From positions 1,216,001-1,280,000 of the forward strand of contig OZ244052.1 in assembly GCA_965215125.1 (NCBI GenBank): a DNA stretch of 64,000 bases, in the 5' to 3' direction. Within the stretch, counting starts at the first letter, position 1. Each line of letters begins with the position of its first letter. This document shows, piece by piece, positions 25,032-48,474 of this stretch. Made by a program: the position numbers and the translations under genes. Origin of the DNA: an uncultured candidatus Porisulfidus sp. Its GTDB lineage: Bacteria > Pseudomonadota > Gammaproteobacteria > Poriferisulfidales > Oxydemutatoraceae. The notes below the pieces were generated by a model. That model worked only from the letters and a program-made list of their open reading frames with translations. It made no database searches and was not told where the DNA came from.

Positions 25032-25976
25032 TCAAGTGTGCCAATCGTATCCCGAGAAAAAATCATATTTTTCAATGAGCGATGCTATGGTCTGTTTTTC
25101 TTCTTTTGTCCAATTACGCTCAAAGCGACTCTTATGAGTTTCTTTATTAACAACAGAGGCACAGTCATCTAGATAATCGGAGGAGGCAGGTACTTGTAAA
25201 AAATCACAAATTTTAGCTAATTGTGAACGAGGATTTGCGACCATATCCTCATGCTTTGAATAAAATATATCTTGGGGATCAATTTTTTCGGCAAGCTCTT
25301 CACTTTGCACACAATATCTCAAAAATTCATTAATAGTACTACCGTATCGCTTACTTGTTGAATACATATCATAAGGGTTGCGAACCGTAAAAATGAACTT
25401 CAAATGCGATGTTTTTTTCTCAAGCCGCTTTGTAAGAGTTTTTAGTGTATTAGTACTTAGATCCCTTGTGTTTTGTTCAGAATGTTTTTCTCCTATAACT
25501 TTCAATTGCCCAAAGCGGCCTTGATATTGATTGTGGATAAGAATATAGCGTCCTGCTCTATCTTCTGTCCTAATAGTATTGAATGAAATTTTTTTTAATT
25601 TTAGCCATATGTGCGCTTTAAGTAGAACCTCGTAATCACGCTCTAAAATTTGATTAAATATTTTGTCCAAATTAGAGTGTAGCCGTATGTTTTGCTCAGG
25701 GTGGAGTGCTTCGTCGGCGACAACCATATTAGGATGTGCTGTTAGCAAATAACCAAGTAGTGAAGAACCGGATCGAGGAAAACCTATGGTTAGCAAAATT
25801 ATTCGTATATCTTTGAAAGAATTTCCCCAAACTATTCTTTTACGAGAAGCAATGAAATGACATGTGGTTTCCACAAGTGGTCTAACAATTTCTATATCTC
25901 TAAAAGCACGAATCTTGCGCTTAAACCATAAACACTGCGGATATCTCATAGAATTAATATTTTTAAGGAATTGCAT
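25032..25976 (-). CDS. Sulfotransferase (copy A)
   Basis: 5'-PSB GFPRSGSSLL; 3'-PB VRNPYD; ICDFLQV; AT-rich. Confidence 0.85.
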   Translation of the reverse strand: MQFLKNINSMRYPQCLWFKRKIRAFRDIEIVRPLVETTCHFIASRKRIVWGNSFKDIRIILLTIGFPRSGSSLLGYLLTAHPNMVVADEALHPEQNIRLHSNLDKIFNQILERDYEVLLKAHIWLKLKKISFNTIRTEDRAGRYILIHNQYQGRFGQLKVIGEKHSEQNTRDLSTNTLKTLTKRLEKKTSHLKFIFTVRNPYDMYSTSKRYGSTINEFLRYCVQSEELAEKIDPQDIFYSKHEDMVANPRSQLAKICDFLQVPASSDYLDDCASVVNKETHKSRFERNWTKEEKQTIASLIEKYDFFSGYDWHT

Positions 25977-25988
25977 CTGTCAACTATT

Positions 25989-27260
25989 TTACTTTGGAGG
26001 TGGCACACATTCGGTCTCTATTAAATCCTGAAGGCTCTCACGACACCGGATAATATCAAAGGTATTACCGTTCACCAACACCTCCATCGGTTTGGGTCTA
26101 GTATTGTAATTGCCGGACATACTAAAGCCGTAGGCACCGGTTGATAGTACGGCGAGTAAATCGTTTGGGCGCAGAATTAGCCGACGCCGGTAGCCCAGAG
26201 CATCTGCACTTTCGCATACCGGTCCTACGATGTCGTAGTCTTTAAGGTCACCTTTGTGCGTTTTAACCGGCACGATGTCGTGCCACGCCTGATATAACGA
26301 AGGACGTAACAGATCGTTCATTGCCGCATCAACCACCGCAAAGTGCTTTTGGTGTGTTTGTTTGATATGTATTACTCGGGTGAGCAACACGCCGGCGTTG
26401 CCGACGACGAAGCGCCCCGGTTCTATCAATAAACGATAGGGACGATCGGCGATGATATTTTTCATCGTGGTTGCATAGTCTAGAGCGTCGGGCGGTGTTT
26501 CGTCCTTATAACGGATACCGAAGCCCCCACCTATATCAATGTGAGTAATTCGTAGCCCATTCTCGCAAAGTCGGTCTGCCGTTTCAACGAGTTGTTGTAG
26601 CGCGGCGGCATAAGGTTCGGGAGACATAATTTGTGAACCGATATGGCATGCGATACCACATTCCCGTAGCAAGGCACTGTGGTGTATTTTTTGATAAAGT
26701 GCTATCGCCTGTTGCCGGTCTACGCCGAATTTATTATGGTGTAAGCCGGTCGCAATATAAGGATGTGTTTCGGCATCTACATCGGGGTTGACGCGTATTG
26801 CAACCGGGGCTGTCACATCGAGTGTACCGGCAACTTTTTCTACTAGTAGGAGTTCCGATTCCGATTCTACGTTAATACAAAAAATACCTGCGCGTAGGGC
26901 AGCTTCTATTTCCCATTGTTGTTTGCCCACGCCCGAGAATACGGTTTTCCCGGTGTCGCCGCCGCCTCGGCGCACCCGTTCAAGTTCGCCGCCCGAGACG
27001 ATATCAAAACCGCTACCGAACTGCGCCAATAGATTGAGTATCGCGATATTGGAACACGCCTTGACCGCATAATGGATTTGGTATTGTTGTCCGTTGAATG
27101 CGTCGGACAAGGTATGCAAGTTTTTTTCAATCGCGGCTTTTGAATAAACATAAACGGGTGTGCCACATTCATAGGCTATTTTTTCAAAAGGGACATCCTC
27201 GCAATATAGTTTTCGGTGCACCGAATGTAAGGACGGTGCCGTATAACTATAATCTTTCAT
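25989..27260 (-). CDS. lysA: Diaminopimelate decarboxylase
   Basis: YAVKA, CHIGSQ, IEPGR, GPVCES, YNTRP. Confidence 0.97.
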   Translation of the reverse strand: MKDYSYTAPSLHSVHRKLYCEDVPFEKIAYECGTPVYVYSKAAIEKNLHTLSDAFNGQQYQIHYAVKACSNIAILNLLAQFGSGFDIVSGGELERVRRGGGDTGKTVFSGVGKQQWEIEAALRAGIFCINVESESELLLVEKVAGTLDVTAPVAIRVNPDVDAETHPYIATGLHHNKFGVDRQQAIALYQKIHHSALLRECGIACHIGSQIMSPEPYAAALQQLVETADRLCENGLRITHIDIGGGFGIRYKDETPPDALDYATTMKNIIADRPYRLLIEPGRFVVGNAGVLLTRVIHIKQTHQKHFAVVDAAMNDLLRPSLYQAWHDIVPVKTHKGDLKDYDIVGPVCESADALGYRRRLILRPNDLLAVLSTGAYGFSMSGNYNTRPKPMEVLVNGNTFDIIRCRESLQDLIETECVPPPK

Positions 27261-27370
27261 TGCGTTTCTTTTTGTTGCATTTCTTCGGGCGGCAGGTACA
27301 GCGGTCCCGATTGCCCGCAAGCACCGAGCAGTAATATCATCAATAAGCAAAAAGCAGTGGTGGTTCGCAA
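27257..27370 (-). CDS. lptM: Small lipoprotein LptM/YifL
   Basis: Below the ORF-track cutoff: MRTTTAFCLLMILLLGACGQSGPLYLPPEEMQQKETQ*; lipobox LGAC plus GQ.GPLYLP; ATGA overlap with lysA. Confidence 0.85.
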   Translation of the reverse strand: MRTTTAFCLLMILLLGACGQSGPLYLPPEEMQQKETQ

Positions 27371-41034: not shown

Positions 41035-42177
41035 ATGAATAAATTTATGATAAATGCTCGCTACATGTTGGCACCTGCCACAATACTGCTCGCTATGTGG
41101 GGCGTCTTTATCGGCGGCCCGTGGGTATGGTTGGGTGTCTATATGCTAGGTGCAGGTATTCTTATAGACACGCTAGTCCCTAAGAAAACAATGGGCGCGG
41201 GTTTTGACGAAAACGGCGATACCAACGGTATTCCGAATTTCCAAAACGGTATCATGTATTTCATGCTAGCGGTGTTTGTGTTACTGCAAATAAACTTGGC
41301 ATGGCGGATTTACGAATATGCTACGGGTGTTCCTTTGGGGACGACCGAGATGTTCGGTATCACCGTCTACCAAGGCATCACCGGGCTGCAATTAGTCGGT
41401 GCGACGATCTCGTCCGGAATCTTTGCCGGGATAGGCATTATATATGGACACGAATTGGCGCACACCAAAGGCTTCAGCTTCGTGATTGCACGCTGGATGA
41501 TGGCACTGAGCGGTTCTTCTCATTTTTGCTATGCGCATGTCTACAATCACCACCTGGAGCTAGGTTGCTCGGACGATCCGGCAACCGCACCGCGTGGTCG
41601 TAGTCTATTCGGTCATCTTCCGTTGTCTTATCTGGGACAATCAAAGTTCCTTTACGGCATGGAAAAAGATCGTTTAGCACGCAAAGGTGTGCCGTTCTTA
41701 TCGTGGCAGAACCGCTGGCTTAGAGGTTATGCAATGAGCTTGCCGTCTCTATTCCTGTTTTGGTTGGCAGGCGGATGGCTTGGTGTTGCGTGTCTTGCGC
41801 TGGTTTGGTTAATTTCCAATTTTGAATTGGAAGCACTGAACTATCTAGAGCATTACGGCTTGATTCGTGAGAAAGGTCAGCCTATAGACTACCGTCATTC
41901 GTGGGATAACTCTACTGCTTTGACCAGTTGGTATTTCATAGAAATCGGTCGTCAGGCGGATCACCACGATCGTGGTGAGACACACTTTTGGGAACTCGAC
42001 GAAGTCGGCGCACCCAACACCAACTGCGGTTATTTTATGTTGTTTGCCATCGCATTGTTCCCGATGTTGTTCCATAAATTGATGGAAACCGAACTCAAGA
42101 AATGGGACGACAACGAAGCCGTAGAAGGCGAGCGTCAAATTGCCGATGCAATGAATCAACATGCGGGTTATGCTTAA
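41035..42177 (+). CDS. AlkB/XylM-type integral-membrane di-iron monooxygenase
   Basis: His boxes HELAH, HVYNHH, NYLEHYG and QADHH; DPATA; HSW; GAGGAG RBS. Confidence 0.9.
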   Translation: MNKFMINARYMLAPATILLAMWGVFIGGPWVWLGVYMLGAGILIDTLVPKKTMGAGFDENGDTNGIPNFQNGIMYFMLAVFVLLQINLAWRIYEYATGVPLGTTEMFGITVYQGITGLQLVGATISSGIFAGIGIIYGHELAHTKGFSFVIARWMMALSGSSHFCYAHVYNHHLELGCSDDPATAPRGRSLFGHLPLSYLGQSKFLYGMEKDRLARKGVPFLSWQNRWLRGYAMSLPSLFLFWLAGGWLGVACLALVWLISNFELEALNYLEHYGLIREKGQPIDYRHSWDNSTALTSWYFIEIGRQADHHDRGETHFWELDEVGAPNTNCGYFMLFAIALFPMLFHKLMETELKKWDDNEAVEGERQIADAMNQHAGYA

Positions 42178-42204
42178 TTTATAAGTATTTATTTGTATGT
42201 TAGG

Positions 42205-42239
42205 AAGCCGCCGATGCGAGCGCGTCGGCGGCTTTTTTT
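42205..42239 (+). terminator. Rho-independent terminator after the monooxygenase
   Basis: AAGCCGCCGATGCG-AG-CGCGTCGGCGGCTT followed by a T run. Confidence 0.85.
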
Positions 42240-42259
42240 ATTGGGTTATAATCGTTGTC

Positions 42260-42952
42260 GTGAGTAGTGACCTAATAGATCAAATCATATCGGGTAGCGA
42301 TGAGAGGCAAACCCGTGCCGGCTTGGAAAATCACTTGCGAGAGATCGAACGAAATCTCGCACGGTTGCCTGCCGCTGCTATGAATGAACGGCAAATGCTC
42401 TCGCTTGAGAAAGCTGGGGTTTTAGTAGAACTGGAGGACAAACCACAAGCGTGGAAACTCGCCCGCACCGGCTTTGATTATTTTTTGGAAACCGATCAGT
42501 GGCAATTCGCAGTGGAAGCGTGCGAACTTGTCTACCGTTGCGACTGCGAGGATTCAATTCCGGCATTGGGTATGGCGTGCTGGCTTGCGATTACCTACCC
42601 GATTGACCCGATTTTATCAATTCGTGTTCTGCACTATGTCATAGACGAAACCCCGGATGACTCGGACGGCGGTGCCGTGGCAGCGGTCGTTGCGCATTAT
42701 GTTGCCGATTTGCGAGTATCCGGCGAACAGCGAGATAGCTTGTTGTTTATAACCAAACAGAAGATTGCCGATGTCGCTCGTCGTCATCGTAATATCACCG
42801 ACGAGGAAAGCATCAATATCTGGATGGAGATCTTGGGACTCAAAGATGCCGAGGAATTTTTACCGGCAATGGCAAAAGTAATAGATGTTATTACCGGCGA
42901 CACATGGTGGTTTGATAGAGAACGGTTGCGCGCCCGACTACCGTTCAATTGA
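42260..42952 (+). CDS. Hypothetical all-alpha (TPR-like) protein
   Basis: Long ORF with normal composition; WLAITYPIDP, DETPDDSDG.AVAA, WWFDR; GTG 42260 preferred because it lies after the terminator. Confidence 0.75.
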   Translation: MSSDLIDQIISGSDERQTRAGLENHLREIERNLARLPAAAMNERQMLSLEKAGVLVELEDKPQAWKLARTGFDYFLETDQWQFAVEACELVYRCDCEDSIPALGMACWLAITYPIDPILSIRVLHYVIDETPDDSDGGAVAAVVAHYVADLRVSGEQRDSLLFITKQKIADVARRHRNITDEESINIWMEILGLKDAEEFLPAMAKVIDVITGDTWWFDRERLRARLPFN

Positions 42953-42966
42953 TATGTCGTAGCAAG

Positions 42967-44037
42967 ATGTCAGAACATCGGTGTATTATTCATTTTGATA
43001 TGGATGCTTTTTTCGCATCTATAGAACAACGCGATTTTCCCGAATATGTCGGCAAACCTATCGTGGTCGGCGGCAAGCCGGGCGAGCGTGGCGTAGTAGC
43101 AACATGTAGTTATGAGGCGCGCCCTTTCGGTGTACATTCGGCAATGCCGTCGTCAACCGCCGCCCGTTTGTGTCCGCAAGCAATTTTTGTAAAACCTCGT
43201 TTTGAAGTTTATAGGCAGGTCTCCGCACAAATACGAGAAATCTTTCATTGCTACACCGATATTGTAGAAATGCTATCGCTGGACGAAGCTTATTTAGATG
43301 TCGGCAACTCGGTAGCGGATATCAACGCTGCCGGTAATCTTGCCTACCGGGTTAAAAAACAAGTGCTCGACGAGACTCAACTCACCGTATCGGCAGGTGT
43401 TTCTTATAATAAGTTTTTGGCTAAAATCGCATCGGATATGGATAAGCCGGACGGCTGCTACCTCGTCGCTCCCGATAACGGTTTGGATTTTGTTGCCCGT
43501 CTGCCGATCGGTCGTTTTCACGGCATAGGCAAGGTTACGCAAAAGCGTATGCAGGAGATGGGAATCGAAAACGGCTCGGACCTTAGACGATGCACGCGTG
43601 AGTTACTGGTTGCAACCTTCGGCAAAGCAGGCCATTATTATTACGATGCCGCACGCGGCGTAGACCACAGAGAAGTGGTTCCGGAGCGTCCGCGTAAATC
43701 TATAGGGGCAGAGACTACCTTTAGAAGCGACCTCGTGAAAGAAAAAGTTATTCAAGAGGAGTTAAAACAGTATGCAACCAAGGTTGCCCGCATACTTGCG
43801 GCGCGCAACTTGAGCGGAAGAACGGTCACCTTAAAAGTCAAATATGCGAATTTTCAGCAAATCACCCGTAGCCATACCCTAGATCATCCGTTGAGCGGTT
43901 TGAAAGAAATGTGGTCTGTATTACACGGGCTACTGCAAAAAACGGAAATCGGCAAACGACCGATACGCTTGCTCGGAGTCGCAGTGTCTAATTTGTGTGC
44001 TTCCGGCTCGTTGCGTCAAGAACAACTAAAGTTTTAA
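42967..44037 (+). CDS. dinB: DNA polymerase IV
   Basis: HFDMDAFFASIE, CSYEAR, SLDEAYLD, KIASD. Confidence 0.96.
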   Translation: MSEHRCIIHFDMDAFFASIEQRDFPEYVGKPIVVGGKPGERGVVATCSYEARPFGVHSAMPSSTAARLCPQAIFVKPRFEVYRQVSAQIREIFHCYTDIVEMLSLDEAYLDVGNSVADINAAGNLAYRVKKQVLDETQLTVSAGVSYNKFLAKIASDMDKPDGCYLVAPDNGLDFVARLPIGRFHGIGKVTQKRMQEMGIENGSDLRRCTRELLVATFGKAGHYYYDAARGVDHREVVPERPRKSIGAETTFRSDLVKEKVIQEELKQYATKVARILAARNLSGRTVTLKVKYANFQQITRSHTLDHPLSGLKEMWSVLHGLLQKTEIGKRPIRLLGVAVSNLCASGSLRQEQLKF

Positions 44038-44230
44038 CCACTTATCCCTCTGTAGGTGGTTTGCGTAATTATGTGGCGCAAGACGGTTGATGATATTCCT
44101 CCAAAAATGGACAAAAAAGCCGTGTTATCTATCGGCCTGTCGAATAATCAAGAGAGTAATGAGCAATAAAGATATCATGGCTTTACCGGCGCATGCTTGT
44201 ATTATAAAAGACGGTTCTGTGTCAATTCCC

Positions 44231-45148
44231 TTAAGTGTGCCAATCGTATCCCGAGAAAAAATCATATTTTTCAGTAAGCGATGCTATAGCCTGTTTTTCG
44301 TCTTCTGTCCAATCACATTCATAACGACTCTTATGAGGTTTTTTATTAACTACAGAGGCGCAGTCATCTAGATAATCGGGAGAGGCGGGTACTTGTAAAA
44401 AATCACAAATTTTAGCTAATTCTGAGCGAGGATCTGCAACCATATTTTCATGCCTCGCTATAAATATATCTCTAGAATCAGTTTGTTTAAGTAACTTTTC
44501 ACTTTTTTTAGACAACCTCAACAAAGTACCTATCGTATCAGAACCACTAAATCTTGTCCTTGTAGCATACATATCGTAAGGGTTGCGAACCGTAAGAATT
44601 AATTTCATTGCAATGTTTCTTTTCTTAAGGGTATTTTTGAGCATTTCCAGTGTGGGATTATTATTTAGAAACTTCATATTTCTTACAGAAGCTTTATTCC
44701 CTATAATATTCAGTTGTTTGAAAGAACCTTGATGCTGATTAAGAATTAATATAGCACCCGCTATTCTAGCTCGTCTGAGAACAACTTTCGTCCGATTGCG
44801 GCTTGACAATTTTTTTTTGACTTTAGCCAAACGCAATTTTTCAAGCCACAGATTATAATCAGAGTTCAAAATATAACAAAATATTCCGTCTAGATTGGTT
44901 TTTAGTTTGATTTTTTTGTCAATATAGGGAGCTTCGTCGGCAATGACTATATTAGAATGTGCCGTTAGCAAATAACCGAGTAATGAAGAACCAGCTCGAG
45001 GGAAGCCTATTGTAAGCAACATTATCTGCACATCTCTCAAAGAGTTTTTCAAAACTACTTTTTTAGGAAAAGCGAGGAAATCATATATGTATATATTATA
45101 TAAATACCGCTTTTTTTTTATATTAATAGCGTTGTTAAGAAATCGCAT
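44231..45148 (-). CDS. Sulfotransferase (copy B, paralog of 25032-25976)
   Basis: GFPRAGSSLL, VRNPYD, and the same KYDFFSGYDWHT end as copy A. Confidence 0.85.
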   Translation of the reverse strand: MRFLNNAINIKKKRYLYNIYIYDFLAFPKKVVLKNSLRDVQIMLLTIGFPRAGSSLLGYLLTAHSNIVIADEAPYIDKKIKLKTNLDGIFCYILNSDYNLWLEKLRLAKVKKKLSSRNRTKVVLRRARIAGAILILNQHQGSFKQLNIIGNKASVRNMKFLNNNPTLEMLKNTLKKRNIAMKLILTVRNPYDMYATRTRFSGSDTIGTLLRLSKKSEKLLKQTDSRDIFIARHENMVADPRSELAKICDFLQVPASPDYLDDCASVVNKKPHKSRYECDWTEDEKQAIASLTEKYDFFSGYDWHT

Positions 45149-45165
45149 CTGTCAACTATTTTACT

Positions 45166-45493
45166 TTAGGTTACTTTGAAGGTGGTATACATTCGCTCTC
45201 TATTAAATACTGAAGGCTCTCGGATTATATCAAAGGTATCACCGTTCACCAACACCTCCATAGGCTTGGGTCTAGTATTGTAGTTTCCGGACATACTAAC
45301 GCCGTAAGCACCGGTTGATAGTGCGGCGAGTAAATCGTTTGGGTGTAAAACTAACCGGCACCGATAGCCCAAAACATCTGCGCTTTCGCATACCGGCCCC
45401 ATGATATCATAGTCTTTATGTGTACTTTGTGTGCTTTAACCGGCACGATGTCGTGCTACGTCTGATATAACGAAAGGCGTAACAGGTCGTTCA
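45166..45493 (-). pseudogene. Duplicated 3' fragment of lysA
   Basis: Aligns to about 25990-26320 (roughly 85-90% by hand); has an 8-bp deletion, a TGG>TAG stop and no 5' part. Confidence 0.9.
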
Positions 45494-45563
45494 ACGCCAC
45501 TTGCGCTACTGCAACAAGTGGCGATTCTGTGTGCTAAAATCCCTTTCGGGTAGTTTTCTTTAT

Positions 45564-45636
<73 letters not shown>

Positions 45637-45647
45637 CCGGTTCAAGC

Positions 45648-45723
45648 GCGCCCGTAGCTCAGTGGATAGAGCGCTGCCCTCCGGAGGCAGAAGTCGCAGG
45701 TTCGAATCCTGCCGGGCGCGCCA
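45648..45723 (+). tRNA. tRNA-Arg(CCG)
   Basis: GCGCCCGTAGCTCAG...CTGCCCTCCGGAGGCAG...TTCGAATC...CGGGCGCGCCA. Confidence 0.97.
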
Positions 45724-45731
45724 TTCAGACA

Positions 45732-47333
45732 TTATTGCGTGTTCCAATGCAAGGTTTCACGCAGTTTGACCTTTAATAGCAATAAGGCTATGAAATAAAA
45801 GCCGGCACCTAATATAATCGTGCCTGCCAGCGCGGCGACGCGATACACCGCATCCCATACATTCCAATCGGGCAACCGATGTATAAGGTATATCAGTAGT
45901 AATCCCATAAGCAAAGAGGCGACCAGTATCTTCTTGATAAGCGCGCTTGTTTCTGCATTGATACGAAATATACGATGGCGGACGAGTGCACGATACAGTA
46001 AAAAACTATTCAATAGTGCCGATAAACTGGTTGCTAATGCCAATGCAGCATGCGGCGCAAGCAAGCCTATGTATTGCCACAATAAGACCAGCACGATATT
46101 CAACGCAATGTTGCTCAGCATGGCAACGACGGCAATCCGCATCGGGAGTTTGGTGTTTTGATGAGCAAAAAAAGCACAAGAAAATATCTTAATGAGCATA
46201 AACATAGGCAAACCTAGTGCATAAGCGATTAGGCTAATGCTCACCATCAGCGTATCGTCGTAGGTGAATTGACGGTATTGTATCAACGAGATTAGTATGG
46301 GTTGCGCCAATACGACGAGTCCGACCACACAGGGGAAAGCGAGCATCATCGCAGCGCGCACTCCCCAATCCATGGTTTGTTGAAAGTACTTTAGATCGGA
46401 GGCAACCCGATGCGCAGACAGCCGTGCCAACAACACCGTGCTGATGGCAATCCCGAAAACTCCCATCGGCAATTCCACGAAGCGATCCGAGATATAAAGC
46501 CAGCTAATACTGCCGGCAACGAGGAAAGATGCTATCAATGTATCGAACAAAAGATTGACTTGTACGATTGCGGAGCTAAAGATTGCCGGAAGCATCAATC
46601 GTCCTACCCGTCGCACGCCCTTATGTCGGAAATCCAACCTAAATCCGAAAGTCCAGTCAATACGCTTTAGCCAAAGCACGACAAAAGACAGTTGCGCAAT
46701 GCCGGCGACCAAAACTCCCCATGCGAGAGCGGTTATGGGTTCGTCCATCTTGGGTGCCACCCATAGTGTCGCGGTGATCAAGGATAGATTCATCAATACC
46801 GGTGTGAAAGCCGGTGCCCCGAAATGACCATAGCTGTTGAGTATGCCGGTGGCAAGTGCGGTTAAAGAAATGAATAACACATAAGGAAAAGTGATGCGTA
46901 GCATTTGTGCCGACAAATCAAATCTATCACCTTCGTCTATAAAGCCGGGGGCAAAGACGGCAATTAATACAGGTGCTACGAGTATTCCGACGACGGTGAT
47001 AACCAGCAATATCATGCCGAGGGTGCCGGCAGCACAATCTGCAAACCTATGCAATTCGGTAGGGCTACGATGTGTTTTATATTCTTGGAACACCGGTACG
47101 AAAGCCTGAGAGAGTGCACCTTCTCCGAAAAGCCGTCGCATCAAATTGGGTAATCTGAAGGCGACTAGAAAAGCATCGGTAGCACCACCGGCTCCGAAGA
47201 CAATAAAAATGATCGCATCTCTGGTATAGCCTAAAACGCGCGACAGCATAGTCAAAAGACTGAAAGAAGCCGTTGATTTAAGCAGCTTTTTTCCTAATCC
47301 GGGCGATTTTGTATCGGTTGCGATTTGCGTCAA
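45732..47333 (-). CDS. murJ: Lipid II flippase
   Basis: SRVLGYTRD, AFRLPN.MRRLFGEGA, DRFVELP.G. Confidence 0.95.
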   Translation of the reverse strand: MTQIATDTKSPGLGKKLLKSTASFSLLTMLSRVLGYTRDAIIFIVFGAGGATDAFLVAFRLPNLMRRLFGEGALSQAFVPVFQEYKTHRSPTELHRFADCAAGTLGMILLVITVVGILVAPVLIAVFAPGFIDEGDRFDLSAQMLRITFPYVLFISLTALATGILNSYGHFGAPAFTPVLMNLSLITATLWVAPKMDEPITALAWGVLVAGIAQLSFVVLWLKRIDWTFGFRLDFRHKGVRRVGRLMLPAIFSSAIVQVNLLFDTLIASFLVAGSISWLYISDRFVELPMGVFGIAISTVLLARLSAHRVASDLKYFQQTMDWGVRAAMMLAFPCVVGLVVLAQPILISLIQYRQFTYDDTLMVSISLIAYALGLPMFMLIKIFSCAFFAHQNTKLPMRIAVVAMLSNIALNIVLVLLWQYIGLLAPHAALALATSLSALLNSFLLYRALVRHRIFRINAETSALIKKILVASLLMGLLLIYLIHRLPDWNVWDAVYRVAALAGTIILGAGFYFIALLLLKVKLRETLHWNTQ

Positions 47334-47361
47334 TTTATCAAAGCCTTTTCAGAGTATACGA

Positions 47362-48474
47362 TTAGGCGTTTTGCCGATGGCACCACAACTTGGGGTCAAG
47401 TTGTTCGTTAAATCTGCGTATTTCAAAATACAAGCCGGTATCGCCGGAGGTTCCGCCGTTGCCTACCTCTGCAATACGCTCCCCGGTTCGCACACTATCT
47501 CCTACTTCCTTATAGAGTGTTTCGTTGTTTGCATAAAGCGACATATAACCGTCCCCGTGGTCAATGATTAATAGCATGCCGTAGCTACGGAACCAATCAC
47601 TGAATACTACATGGCCGTCGTAGATACTTTTGACTTTCGTGTCGGCAGTAGCCGGCAAAAAAATTCCCGGCAGTTTTTTATTGTCGCTTCGTATAGTGAT
47701 AGGTCTGTCCAAGGGCCAGGGTAAGCTACCCTTGAGTGTGCCGAATTGTAATACCGAAGCCGACGATGTTCCAAACCGCGCAATGAGTCGTTGCAGTTCT
47801 TCGGCATCTTTTTGTAGCGTGGCAATCGCAATCTGTTCTTGCGTGATCTTCTGCTCTAAGGTATTGATTATCTCTTGTTTCTTTTGTCGTTTCTGTTCAA
47901 TTTCTCGTACTATCCGCTGTTGTCGTGCGTGTTCCAGTTCTAGGGCGCGGTTTTGCACCTTGAGTTCCGTTCGTATCTCCGATAGATGCGATAATTGTTC
48001 CGAAAGTTCGGATAATTTATTTGCTCTTTCCCGATTAAAGTAATCGTAATAGACCGCCCTTCGTTCAAAGCCACGCCAGTCGTCGGCACCGAGTAAATAG
48101 CTAAACCGCCGGGTTCGCACATCGTGTTGCATAGAGCGCAAGCCCGACTTAAGCGAGGATAAGTGATCGGCGTGCTGCTCGGACAAGTCTTCGGCTTGTT
48201 CGGTGAGCGTGGATAATTTTGATTTCAATTCGGAAAGATTCTTAACCGATTTTTCATAACCGCGTTTGGCATCACTAAGACTGCGCGCACTGTATCCTAA
48301 TTGTTGTTGTAATTGTTCAAGTGCCTTAGACGCAGAACCTAGATCGCGTTGCTTTTCAAGCACTTGCGATTCGATGGATTGTAGGCGCTCATCGTAAGTT
48401 TGAGGGTAAGCTGCCGTTCCTGCGCATAATGCGAAAAACAATGCGATTAGCCTTAATTTATGTTGCGAAATCAT
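47362..48474 (-). CDS. envC: Murein hydrolase activator EnvC (coiled coil plus degenerate M23)
   Basis: Signal peptide, coiled coil, LPWP, IIDHGDGYMSLY, LYFEIR. Confidence 0.88.
   Translation of the reverse strand: MISQHKLRLIALFFALCAGTAAYPQTYDERLQSIESQVLEKQRDLGSASKALEQLQQQLGYSARSLSDAKRGYEKSVKNLSELKSKLSTLTEQAEDLSEQHADHLSSLKSGLRSMQHDVRTRRFSYLLGADDWRGFERRAVYYDYFNRERANKLSELSEQLSHLSEIRTELKVQNRALELEHARQQRIVREIEQKRQKKQEIINTLEQKITQEQIAIATLQKDAEELQRLIARFGTSSASVLQFGTLKGSLPWPLDRPITIRSDNKKLPGIFLPATADTKVKSIYDGHVVFSDWFRSYGMLLIIDHGDGYMSLYANNETLYKEVGDSVRTGERIAEVGNGGTSGDTGLYFEIRRFNEQLDPKLWCHRQNA

Follow-up and report, generated by a model that had tools for sequence, protein, structure and literature searches.

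Gene conversion and concerted evolution between bacterial paralogs are known from the tuf genes, the rRNA operons and mosaic surface-protein genes. Other well described variable loci include the pilE/pilS and vlsE cassette systems, the phase-variable simple-repeat loci for lipooligosaccharide (LOS) in Haemophilus and Neisseria, and the replacement-type flexible genomic islets ('glycotype' islands) of marine bacteria. Here we analyze a stretch of 64,000 nucleotides (nt), the window, from an uncultured candidatus Porisulfidus sp.; it corresponds to G000:C1:1216001-1280000, G000 being the source genome (one contig, 2.22 Mb, GC 46%). The window carries two copies of a sulfotransferase (ST) gene. 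Copy A encodes ST-A and is linked to an intact lysA, while copy B, 19 kb away on the same strand, encodes ST-B and is preceded by a dead fragment of lysA. A sister species, G003, harbors the ortholog of copy A (A3), and two further genomes of the genus, G001 and G004, served as lysA outgroups. At copy B the dead lysA DNA appears better conserved than the enzyme next to it. With moderate confidence we take copy B to be an old duplicate, its flanks shaped by conversion and constraint, that belongs to an expanded ST family carried on islets, and we do not see in the pattern the trace of a selective race of the enzyme.

The locus resembles described cases of gene conversion in that tracts of about 200 nt were copied between non-allelic copies, adjacent segments give conflicting trees, and paralogs are closer to each other than orthologs within a converted block. 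It differs in that the essential lysA donated one tract to a dead gene fragment, and in that divergence is too high for conversion in the enzyme body that the alike blocks enclose. With the glycotype islets it shares AT-rich surface-modification genes between conserved housekeeping genes, the content between lysA and a methyltransferase gene varying by species. However, a single gene and not a large cluster is concerned here, and contigs from four studies gave no strain-level replacement where they cover the locus. Like pilE/pilS and vlsE, the family is multi-copy with conserved ends and a variable middle, but its copies are full-length open reading frames (ORFs) with their own starts and not silent cassettes. 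The hallmark of a silent-cassette or shufflon system, promoterless partial cassettes with one expression site, was not found among the 12 paralog loci of G000: 10 are full-length open frames with the loop that binds 3'-phosphoadenosine 5'-phosphosulfate (PAPS), one locus pair is one gene interrupted by an IS256-family element, and one locus has a shifted frame. The likeness to the LOS loci lies in one close G003 paralog with an (ATAC)16 repeat at its frame break; ST-B has A9 runs only.

The lysA remnant of copy B is a mosaic of two ages

BLASTN joins loci A and B by two alignments (71.9% over 866 nt, E 4e-122; 82.7% over 381 nt, E 4e-109), which confirms that the segment 44231-45493 is a copy of the region first placed at 25032-26320. 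Homology runs from the ST stop codon (44231 at B, 25032 at A) to 45493 at B and about 26330 at A, and the earlier end at A was about 10 nt short. Identity in 60-nt windows is 0.81-0.94 in the lysA part, 0.80-0.90 in the leader between lysA and ST and 0.85 in the PAPS-loop region, falls to 0.44-0.63 with large gaps in the ST N-terminus and to 0.43-0.68 in the middle, and returns to 0.82-0.93 over the last ~75 codons. All ST indels between A and B are whole codons and both ORFs are intact (314 and 305 aa). The pattern given by the original prediction, a well conserved C-terminal end next to a far more diverged N-terminus and middle with in-frame indels, is hence borne out, and uniform divergence along the segment is ruled out. 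Its hand count of about 88% for the lysA part was right as to high similarity and slightly above the measured value of 86.4% (45 of 332 aligned sites differ). The term pseudogene fragment is correct for copy B only, since lysA at copy A is intact.

We aligned the remnant with lysA of G000, G003, G001 and G004 (339 columns). The remnant shares 86.4% identity with A, 84.1% with A3 and 82% with the outgroups, and the two live genes A and A3 share 92.3%. Changes specific to B are concentrated in the half distal to the ST gene (26 of 163 sites, against 10 of 181 in the proximal half; p=0.002) and are spread evenly over the codon positions (8, 7 and 11 distal; 3, 2 and 5 proximal), which fits dead DNA. 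At nine sites, all within 26170-26249 of locus A, A and A3 have a derived base in common and B has the outgroup base; at 13 sites the derived base is common to A, A3 and B, and 11 of these lie proximal to 26168. In the proximal half all 11 changes on the stem of A and A3 are also found in B (9:2 against 0:11, Fisher p=0.0002, with lysA of G001 and G004 as outgroups). The maximum-likelihood (ML) trees of the two halves differ accordingly. The distal half unites A and A3 in 98% of 200 bootstraps and leaves B outside, and the proximal half groups A and B in 91% of 200 bootstraps and excludes A3. Adjacent halves of the remnant thus yield conflicting, supported trees, as is expected of gene conversion. 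In plain counts, the distal half of B differs from G001 lysA at 28 of 159 sites and from lysA of its own genome at 31 of 159, and in the proximal half A and B differ at 15 of 170 sites, A3 and B at 19 of 180.

As its distal half lies outside A and A3, copy B is older than the split of G000 and G003. After speciation, gene conversion from the live G000 lysA, 19 kb away, replaced the roughly 200 nt beside the ST start, that is the proximal remnant with the leader. This gene (25989-27350) is the sole other lysA sequence in G000 and hence an identifiable donor: a check of the other copies for a lysA fragment, which had been proposed, found lysA sequence at A (intact) and B only. The four other genomes of the genus have one lysA match each and no second lysA piece. 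Eight changes in about 170 sites (4.7%) of the proximal half are unique to B, which by our estimate corresponds to roughly half of the silent divergence that each lineage has gathered since speciation (lysA dS, the synonymous divergence, is 0.19). A single recent conversion between old paralogs had been named as an explanation of flank similarity that would overturn the prediction; on the bootstrap values above it explains one half of the flank. Elsewhere in the remnant, free change is confined to the dead copy, as live lysA is under constraint. The dead flank therefore looks young since half of it was converted later and only one side decays.

Silent divergence and constraint in the enzyme

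As sliding dN/dS by the NG86 method proved too noisy, rates were estimated instead with a pairwise ML codon model from our own script (F3x4, shared kappa). Between A and B this model gives a dS of 0.84, a dN (nonsynonymous divergence) of 0.52 and an omega (dN/dS) of 0.62 in the N-terminus; 0.84, 0.13 and 0.15 in the PAPS loop; 2.5 (saturated; 2.54), 0.55 and 0.22 in the middle; and 0.31, 0.08 and 0.27 in the C-terminus. Omega is below 1 in every block. Likelihood ratio tests (LRTs) reject equal dS in middle and C-terminus as well as omega=1 in the middle (both p<1e-5). The middle has an omega of 0.26 between A3 and B and of 0.69 between A and A3, and its dS of 2.5, 2.1 and 0.53 (A-B, A3-B and A-A3) contrasts with 0.31, 0.28 and 0.08 in the C-terminus. 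The orthologs A and A3 show dS values of 0.20, 0.41, 0.53 and 0.08 over N-terminus, PAPS loop, middle and C-terminus; genomic dS between G000 and G003 is 0.19 for lysA, 0.14 for the methyltransferase gene and 0.12 for soxY. The ratio of silent divergence between A-B and A-A3 is 4.2 in the N-terminus, 2.0 in the PAPS loop, 4.8 in the middle and 4.0 in the C-terminus. Because this ratio is 2-5 everywhere, the regional contrast belongs to this ST lineage and not to the duplication.

In the account that we favor, purifying selection acts on the VRNPYD motif and the PAPS-binding loop, and most of all on the C-terminal 74 codons, and the N-terminus and the loops between the motifs are weakly constrained in both copies. 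The C-terminal block is additionally homogenized by conversion in the tandem arrays of the family. For the excess of silent changes in the middle we infer weak constraint together with patchy recombination or multi-base replacements, and not positive selection on DNA of the same age as the flanks. The locus can then serve as a worked example of how a pseudogene may come to look better conserved than the enzyme beside it without an arms race, given one-sided decay, a conversion patch and block-wise constraint.

Several points weigh against this account. The dN of 0.37 in the middle between A and A3 is above the genomic dS of 0.12-0.19, and purifying selection alone is insufficient to explain it. 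The low C-terminal divergence may mark a slow region rather than a separate conversion between A and B: with C-type paralogs as outgroup B falls outside A and A3 in the C-terminus too (6 sites, versus 1 and 0), and hence a separate C-terminal conversion between A and B is not required. Furthermore, the B branch in the distal remnant (0.16) is shorter than half of the ST-body dS (0.84/2), so that either the remnant is the younger of the two, which favors a replacement of the body, or the body dS is overestimated. The regions are short (160-180 nt; 15-150 codons) and errors on all rates are wide; the codon model comes from our own script, and the mosaic split was drawn from site patterns and half trees.

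The best surviving alternative, still an unlikely one, is a double crossover that brought a deeply diverged A-type allele into the ST body at B or A, with the lysA end and leader as one homology handle and the C-terminal module as the other. Silent divergence of the body (ML dS 0.84 to >2) indeed exceeds that of both flanks (0.31 in the C-terminus, 0.16 on the distal remnant branch), and the same excess is seen between A and A3 (middle 0.53, against 0.19 for lysA and 0.08 for the C-terminus). Site classes of the triplet A, A3 and B are clustered along the ST gene, the content of the islet between lysA and the methyltransferase gene differs between species, and several A-type proteins, 63-68% identical, occur in metagenomes. 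However, such a swap lacks a donor. When 150-nt segments of A, A3 and B were compared with 54 family ORFs from five genomes, no middle segment matched above 90%. A search of 5.8 billion proteins (1329 candidates, 86 matches at E<=1e-20) for an ortholog or donor of B found no protein closer to ST-B than 57%, in a word-based search that is not exhaustive and missed the G003 ortholog of A. In addition, the tree of the middle segment still unites A, A3 and B in one clade, the old-young-old-young order along B needs at least two events here too, and the demonstrated younger patch lies in the flank and not in the body. Of the cassette-like exchange between paralogs through conserved flanks that had been predicted, the involvement of recombination stands, and no paralog donor was found among the 54 family ORFs.

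Strong diversifying selection, also part of the original prediction, did not survive, and as an explanation we regard it as improbable. It supposes that body and flanks are of the same age and that a new acceptor specificity drove replacement beyond neutral decay. Omega between A and A3 reaches 1.0 in the N-terminus beside 0.69 in the middle, where dN exceeds genomic dS as noted above, and measured against a consensus of four A-type proteins from metagenomes, A has 37 deviating positions and A3 has 22. The variable blocks are low-confidence loops and helices between the cofactor motifs in the structural model, and a close paralog has a frame-shifting tetranucleotide repeat typical of contingency genes. 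Against these observations stand the low omega of the A-B middle and its silent sites, which are far more diverged than the flanks; a dN/dS above 1 with flank-like dS was not found in the variable region under the pairwise model. We simulated same-age sequences in which replacement was raised to the observed dN, with homogeneous sites or with 65% fast sites, in 150 runs per variant. They gave an ML dS of 0.33-0.36 and silent differences at 18-19% of the unchanged residues, while 2.54 and 39% were observed; none of the 150 runs reached either value under either variant. At unambiguously aligned motifs, where alignment is not in doubt, silent differences number 19 of 51 against 10 of 57 in the C-terminus for A-B (p=0.03), and 20 of 48 against 6 of 56 for A3-B (p=0.0005). 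Simulations and motif counts together thus reject positive selection on DNA of the age of the flanks. Most other ST ortholog pairs of G000 and G003 are, moreover, uniform along their length, with a middle identity of 0.86-0.94.

An assembly artefact or chance similarity has a practically negligible probability: contig assemblies do break within the shared C-terminal repeat (44240-44466), but the BLASTN E-values and independent contigs across locus B without differences refute it. These contigs come from runs of two studies and match the stretches 43900-44262 and 44388-45800 with 0 differences, and low-depth pieces from two further studies match locus B, again with 0 differences. Other letters seen at 44240-44466, 44931-45081 and 45135-45493 stem from contigs of paralogous loci. 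No alternative ST-B middle and no variant joint was found in the covered parts of contigs of four runs from four studies, contigs being prone to drop rare variants.

Copy A itself shows some unusual features. The protein middles of ST-A and A3 (25257-25700) are only 53% identical, and the flanking genes have a dN of 0.02-0.04. ST-A, the more changed of the two orthologs, sits in the genome that keeps a second copy. Micro-conversion from B to A was considered and rejected: A equals B at 7 of its 37 deviations, A3 at 1 of 22, which is not significant; four of the seven cluster at residues 219-226. Runs of at least three mismatches in the A-A3 middle number 13 against 7.2 expected (P=0.0045); they are explicable by codon rate variation and were not used as evidence.

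Predicted activity and genomic setting of copy B

The Pfam scores of ST-B (Table 1) are above the cut-offs of 27 bits for PF13469 (Sulfotransfer_3) and 22 bits for PF00685, and the PAPS-loop and RNPYD-type motifs typical of this family are conserved. By the definitions of the 5'-phosphosulfate-binding loop and the 3'-phosphate-binding (3'PB) motif, these comprise G53, S52 and S54 of GFPRAGSS, and R188, N189, P190, Y191 and D192, all invariant or at least 90% conserved in 74 sequences. The AlphaFold2 model of ST-B has a mean local confidence score (pLDDT) of 85.8 and a global template-modeling score (pTM) of 0.85; the C-terminal module reaches pLDDT 93-98, and residues 1-28 stay below 50. Foldseek returned 70 PDB matches at E<=0.001, and those listed are all sulfotransferases or retinol dehydratase. 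By fold the nearest solved relatives are TPST1/2, TPST2 being the top match (1.9e-8), and the mycobacterial Stf9. By sequence they are the ST domains of CurM and olefin synthase (4gbm, 4gox), with a profile match to CurM (4gbm) of E 4e-13 over the segment from 3'PB to the C-terminus. Foldseek E-values to TPST, Stf9, 4gox and 4gbm are 2e-8 to 8e-7, at TM-scores of only 0.40-0.55. In contrast to the CurM and olefin-synthase domains, the proteins here are stand-alone, with 305-320 residues and an extra variable N-terminus, and not domains of polyketide synthases. Also unlike the solved relatives, they occur in this genus in 10-20 family copies per genome of 1.6-2.9 Mb. For the supply of PAPS, G000 has one adenosine 5'-phosphosulfate kinase domain (PF01583, 185 bits) within a 567-aa open frame.

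Judged by its sequence, ST-B is intact and under purifying selection. From sequence and model we infer a working PAPS-dependent sulfotransferase whose acceptor preference would differ from that of ST-A. The putative target is probably a surface glycan; a glycan gene cluster adjoins neither copy A nor copy B. Homopolymers are present in both copies, with A9 at 44810-44818 and 45111-45119 in ST-B and A8, common to A3, at 25589-25596 in ST-A. It is possible that these runs are slippage sites, yet lysine-rich genes of AT-rich composition also have them by chance, and no length variants were seen in contigs.

Table 1. Features of loci A and B (window coordinates)
Feature	Position	Strand	Evidence and remarks
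ST-A, 314 aa, lysA-linked paralog, source type	25032-25976	-	ORF; PF13469 51.6 bits, PF00685 41.5 bits; G003 syntenic ortholog 68% identical
Intact lysA, diaminopimelate decarboxylase, 453 aa	25989-27350	-	ORF; PF02784 and PF00278; remnant derives from its last ~113 codons
Intergenic spacer, dinB to ST-B stop	44038-44230	.	~36-nt dispersed repeat at ~44054-44092
ST-B, 305 aa	44231-45148	-	ORF; PF13469 42.2 bits, PF00685 34.3 bits
ST-B C-terminal module, last 74 codons	44231-44455	-	nt identity to ST-A 0.89, aa 0.81; family entropy minimum
ST-B variable middle	44456-44930	-	nt identity 0.59, aa 0.41; blocks variable throughout the family; short conserved motifs NQxQG...IGxK and VRNPYD; A9/T9 run 44810-44818
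ST-B PAPS 5'-phosphosulfate-binding loop region (GFPRAGSS...)	44931-45040	-	nt identity 0.79, aa 0.76; Pfam matches
ST-B N-terminal region	45041-45148	-	two in-frame deletions against A-type proteins; A9/T9 run 45111-45119; predicted disordered
Leader, lysA stop to ST start	45149-45165	-	kept in A, A3 and B; TTGACA hexamer directly 5' of ATG
lysA remnant, proximal half, younger gene-conversion patch	45166-45342	-	8-bp deletion near 45220; site patterns, ML tree
lysA remnant, distal half, older sequence	45343-45493	-	1-bp deletion; site patterns, ML tree
Palindromic dispersed repeat, REP-like (repetitive extragenic palindrome)	45494-45535	.	stem 45504-45523; abuts lysA remnant end; hairpin
tRNA-Thr(CGU) and tRNA-Arg(CCG), right-hand neighbors	45564-45723	+	ARAGORN

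At locus A, 12 nt separate lysA and ST-A, and a class-I methyltransferase and a HAD phosphatase follow. G003 keeps this order as soxZ-soxY-lysA-ST-methyltransferase-HAD. The islet between lysA and the methyltransferase gene is variable, with a PF13469 sulfotransferase in G000 and G003 and ~290-aa genes in G001 and G004. Locus B has dinB to its left, and to its right the REP-like hairpin repeat, the two tRNA genes on the opposite strand and murJ. The ST genes are AT-rich, with a GC content of 0.24-0.43 by block against 0.46 in the window.

G003 is syntenic with G000 on both sides of copy B, at 94.7% over window positions 42000-44050 and at 92.9% over 45494-47673. Where G000 has 44051-45493, G003 holds 395 nt of short dispersed repeats (L006:2183-2577), and synteny resumes exactly at 45494. 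An ortholog of B was found in none of the four other genomes of the genus, the best match (55%) being the A ortholog. Copy B is an old copy of a unit made of the lysA 3' end, the leader and the sulfotransferase, placed between dispersed repeats in the spacer of dinB and tRNA-Thr. Two origins can be envisaged: it may have been made in the ancestor and lost in G003, or it may have been imported from the lysA-ST islet of a diverged relative. G000 is rich in short dispersed repeats that resemble REP elements or miniature inverted-repeat transposable elements (MITEs), and two such elements bracket the B segment. The repeat at 44054-44092 has about 23 further BLASTN matches in G000, and that at 45494-45535 has 12 exact-core copies and 14 BLAST matches; the repeats in the 395-nt spacer of G003 have very many matches across G000.

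The leader also precedes the ~290-aa genes, which are unrelated to ST, 3' of lysA in G001 and G004. In each of these genomes the islet holds at least two tandem copies of the ~290-aa gene, each behind a leader of ~45 nt (TAGTTGACA..ATGCAATTCCTTAA), and the same leader likewise precedes ST-A, A3 and ST-B. The ~290-aa genes (L004:2158-3936, L005:2174-3940, L030, L031) are without Pfam match and have the sulfotransferase-like motifs PRSGNHW and YYEDLL. As the ATG frame of the leader is closed by a stop in one of the ~290-aa copies, the leader may be regulatory rather than coding. A role as regulon box was rejected: a search of G000 with up to 5 errors placed it at loci A and B only, the other five matches being poor. 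As to a putative promoter function, which could account for the conservation of the proximal remnant, the TTGACA of the leader has a pairing -10 element at locus A only, and no convincing sigma-70 site was found in the lysA remnant 5' of ST-B.

The sulfotransferase family and its repeat-broken paralog

The finding at copy B is real and ordinary in kind, and we regard the family-level picture as the more interesting lead. Eight of 31 related genomes have the family. All five sampled genomes of this sponge-associated genus carry 12-22 matches each, in tandem arrays and in single-gene AT-rich islets among housekeeping genes; outside the genus there are single weak matches in 3 of 4 genomes of one other genus only. 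No publication on this sulfotransferase family was found in the literature on 'Porisulfidus' and on sulfotransferases in sponges. If it is true that the enzymes sulfate surface glycans of the symbiont, the family would offer a handle on host recognition in sponge symbioses.

Besides A and B, the 12 loci of G000 consist of a frame-shifted copy, a pair of tandem genes, a solitary copy and a tandem array with one IS256-split gene. Six of the 54 family ORFs with less than 230 residues of query cover were dropped, and across the resulting 48-member alignment the PAPS loop, NQxQG...IGxK, VRNPYD and above all the last 74 residues are conserved. In the tandem genes H, F and J, C-terminal identity is 0.92-0.93 within G000 versus 0.87-0.88 to the G003 orthologs, and the middles show the reverse, with 0.51-0.69 within G000 versus 0.86-0.94 to the orthologs. 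Accordingly, paralogs cluster by lineage in the C-terminal tree and by orthology in the middle tree. The C-terminal module therefore evolves in concert in the tandem arrays. For A and B the order is different: C-terminal identity is 0.95 between A and A3 and 0.89 between A and B.

Five to six tandem ST paralogs adjoin uvrB beyond the window, at G000:C1:1965446-1971419, one of them split by an IS256-family transposase gene. In this array the C-terminal 74 codons are nearly alike and the middles are 51-69% identical.

The ST paralog closest to A and B is present as two frames in G000 (G000:C1:2100531-2101401, outside the window), G003 (G003:C1 1044467-1045374) and G001. At the frame break G003 has a 16-unit tetranucleotide repeat (ATAC/TATG; L002:1571-1634), and G000 has about 3 units there. 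By our reading of the frames, a change of one repeat unit would suffice to open each of them, and the split paralog looks like a phase-variable contingency locus. It is tempting to go further and to see the lysA end with the leader and the C-terminal module as handles by which the acceptor-binding middle is swapped or patched, both inside one genome and among related strains. Combined with repeat-driven on/off switching in the sister paralog, this would diversify surface sulfation towards host or phages, a scenario that we consider rather improbable. The (ATAC)16 repeat is the sole one of its kind among the loci compared (L001-L029), and G000 as a whole has only 5 simple repeats of at least 16 nt.

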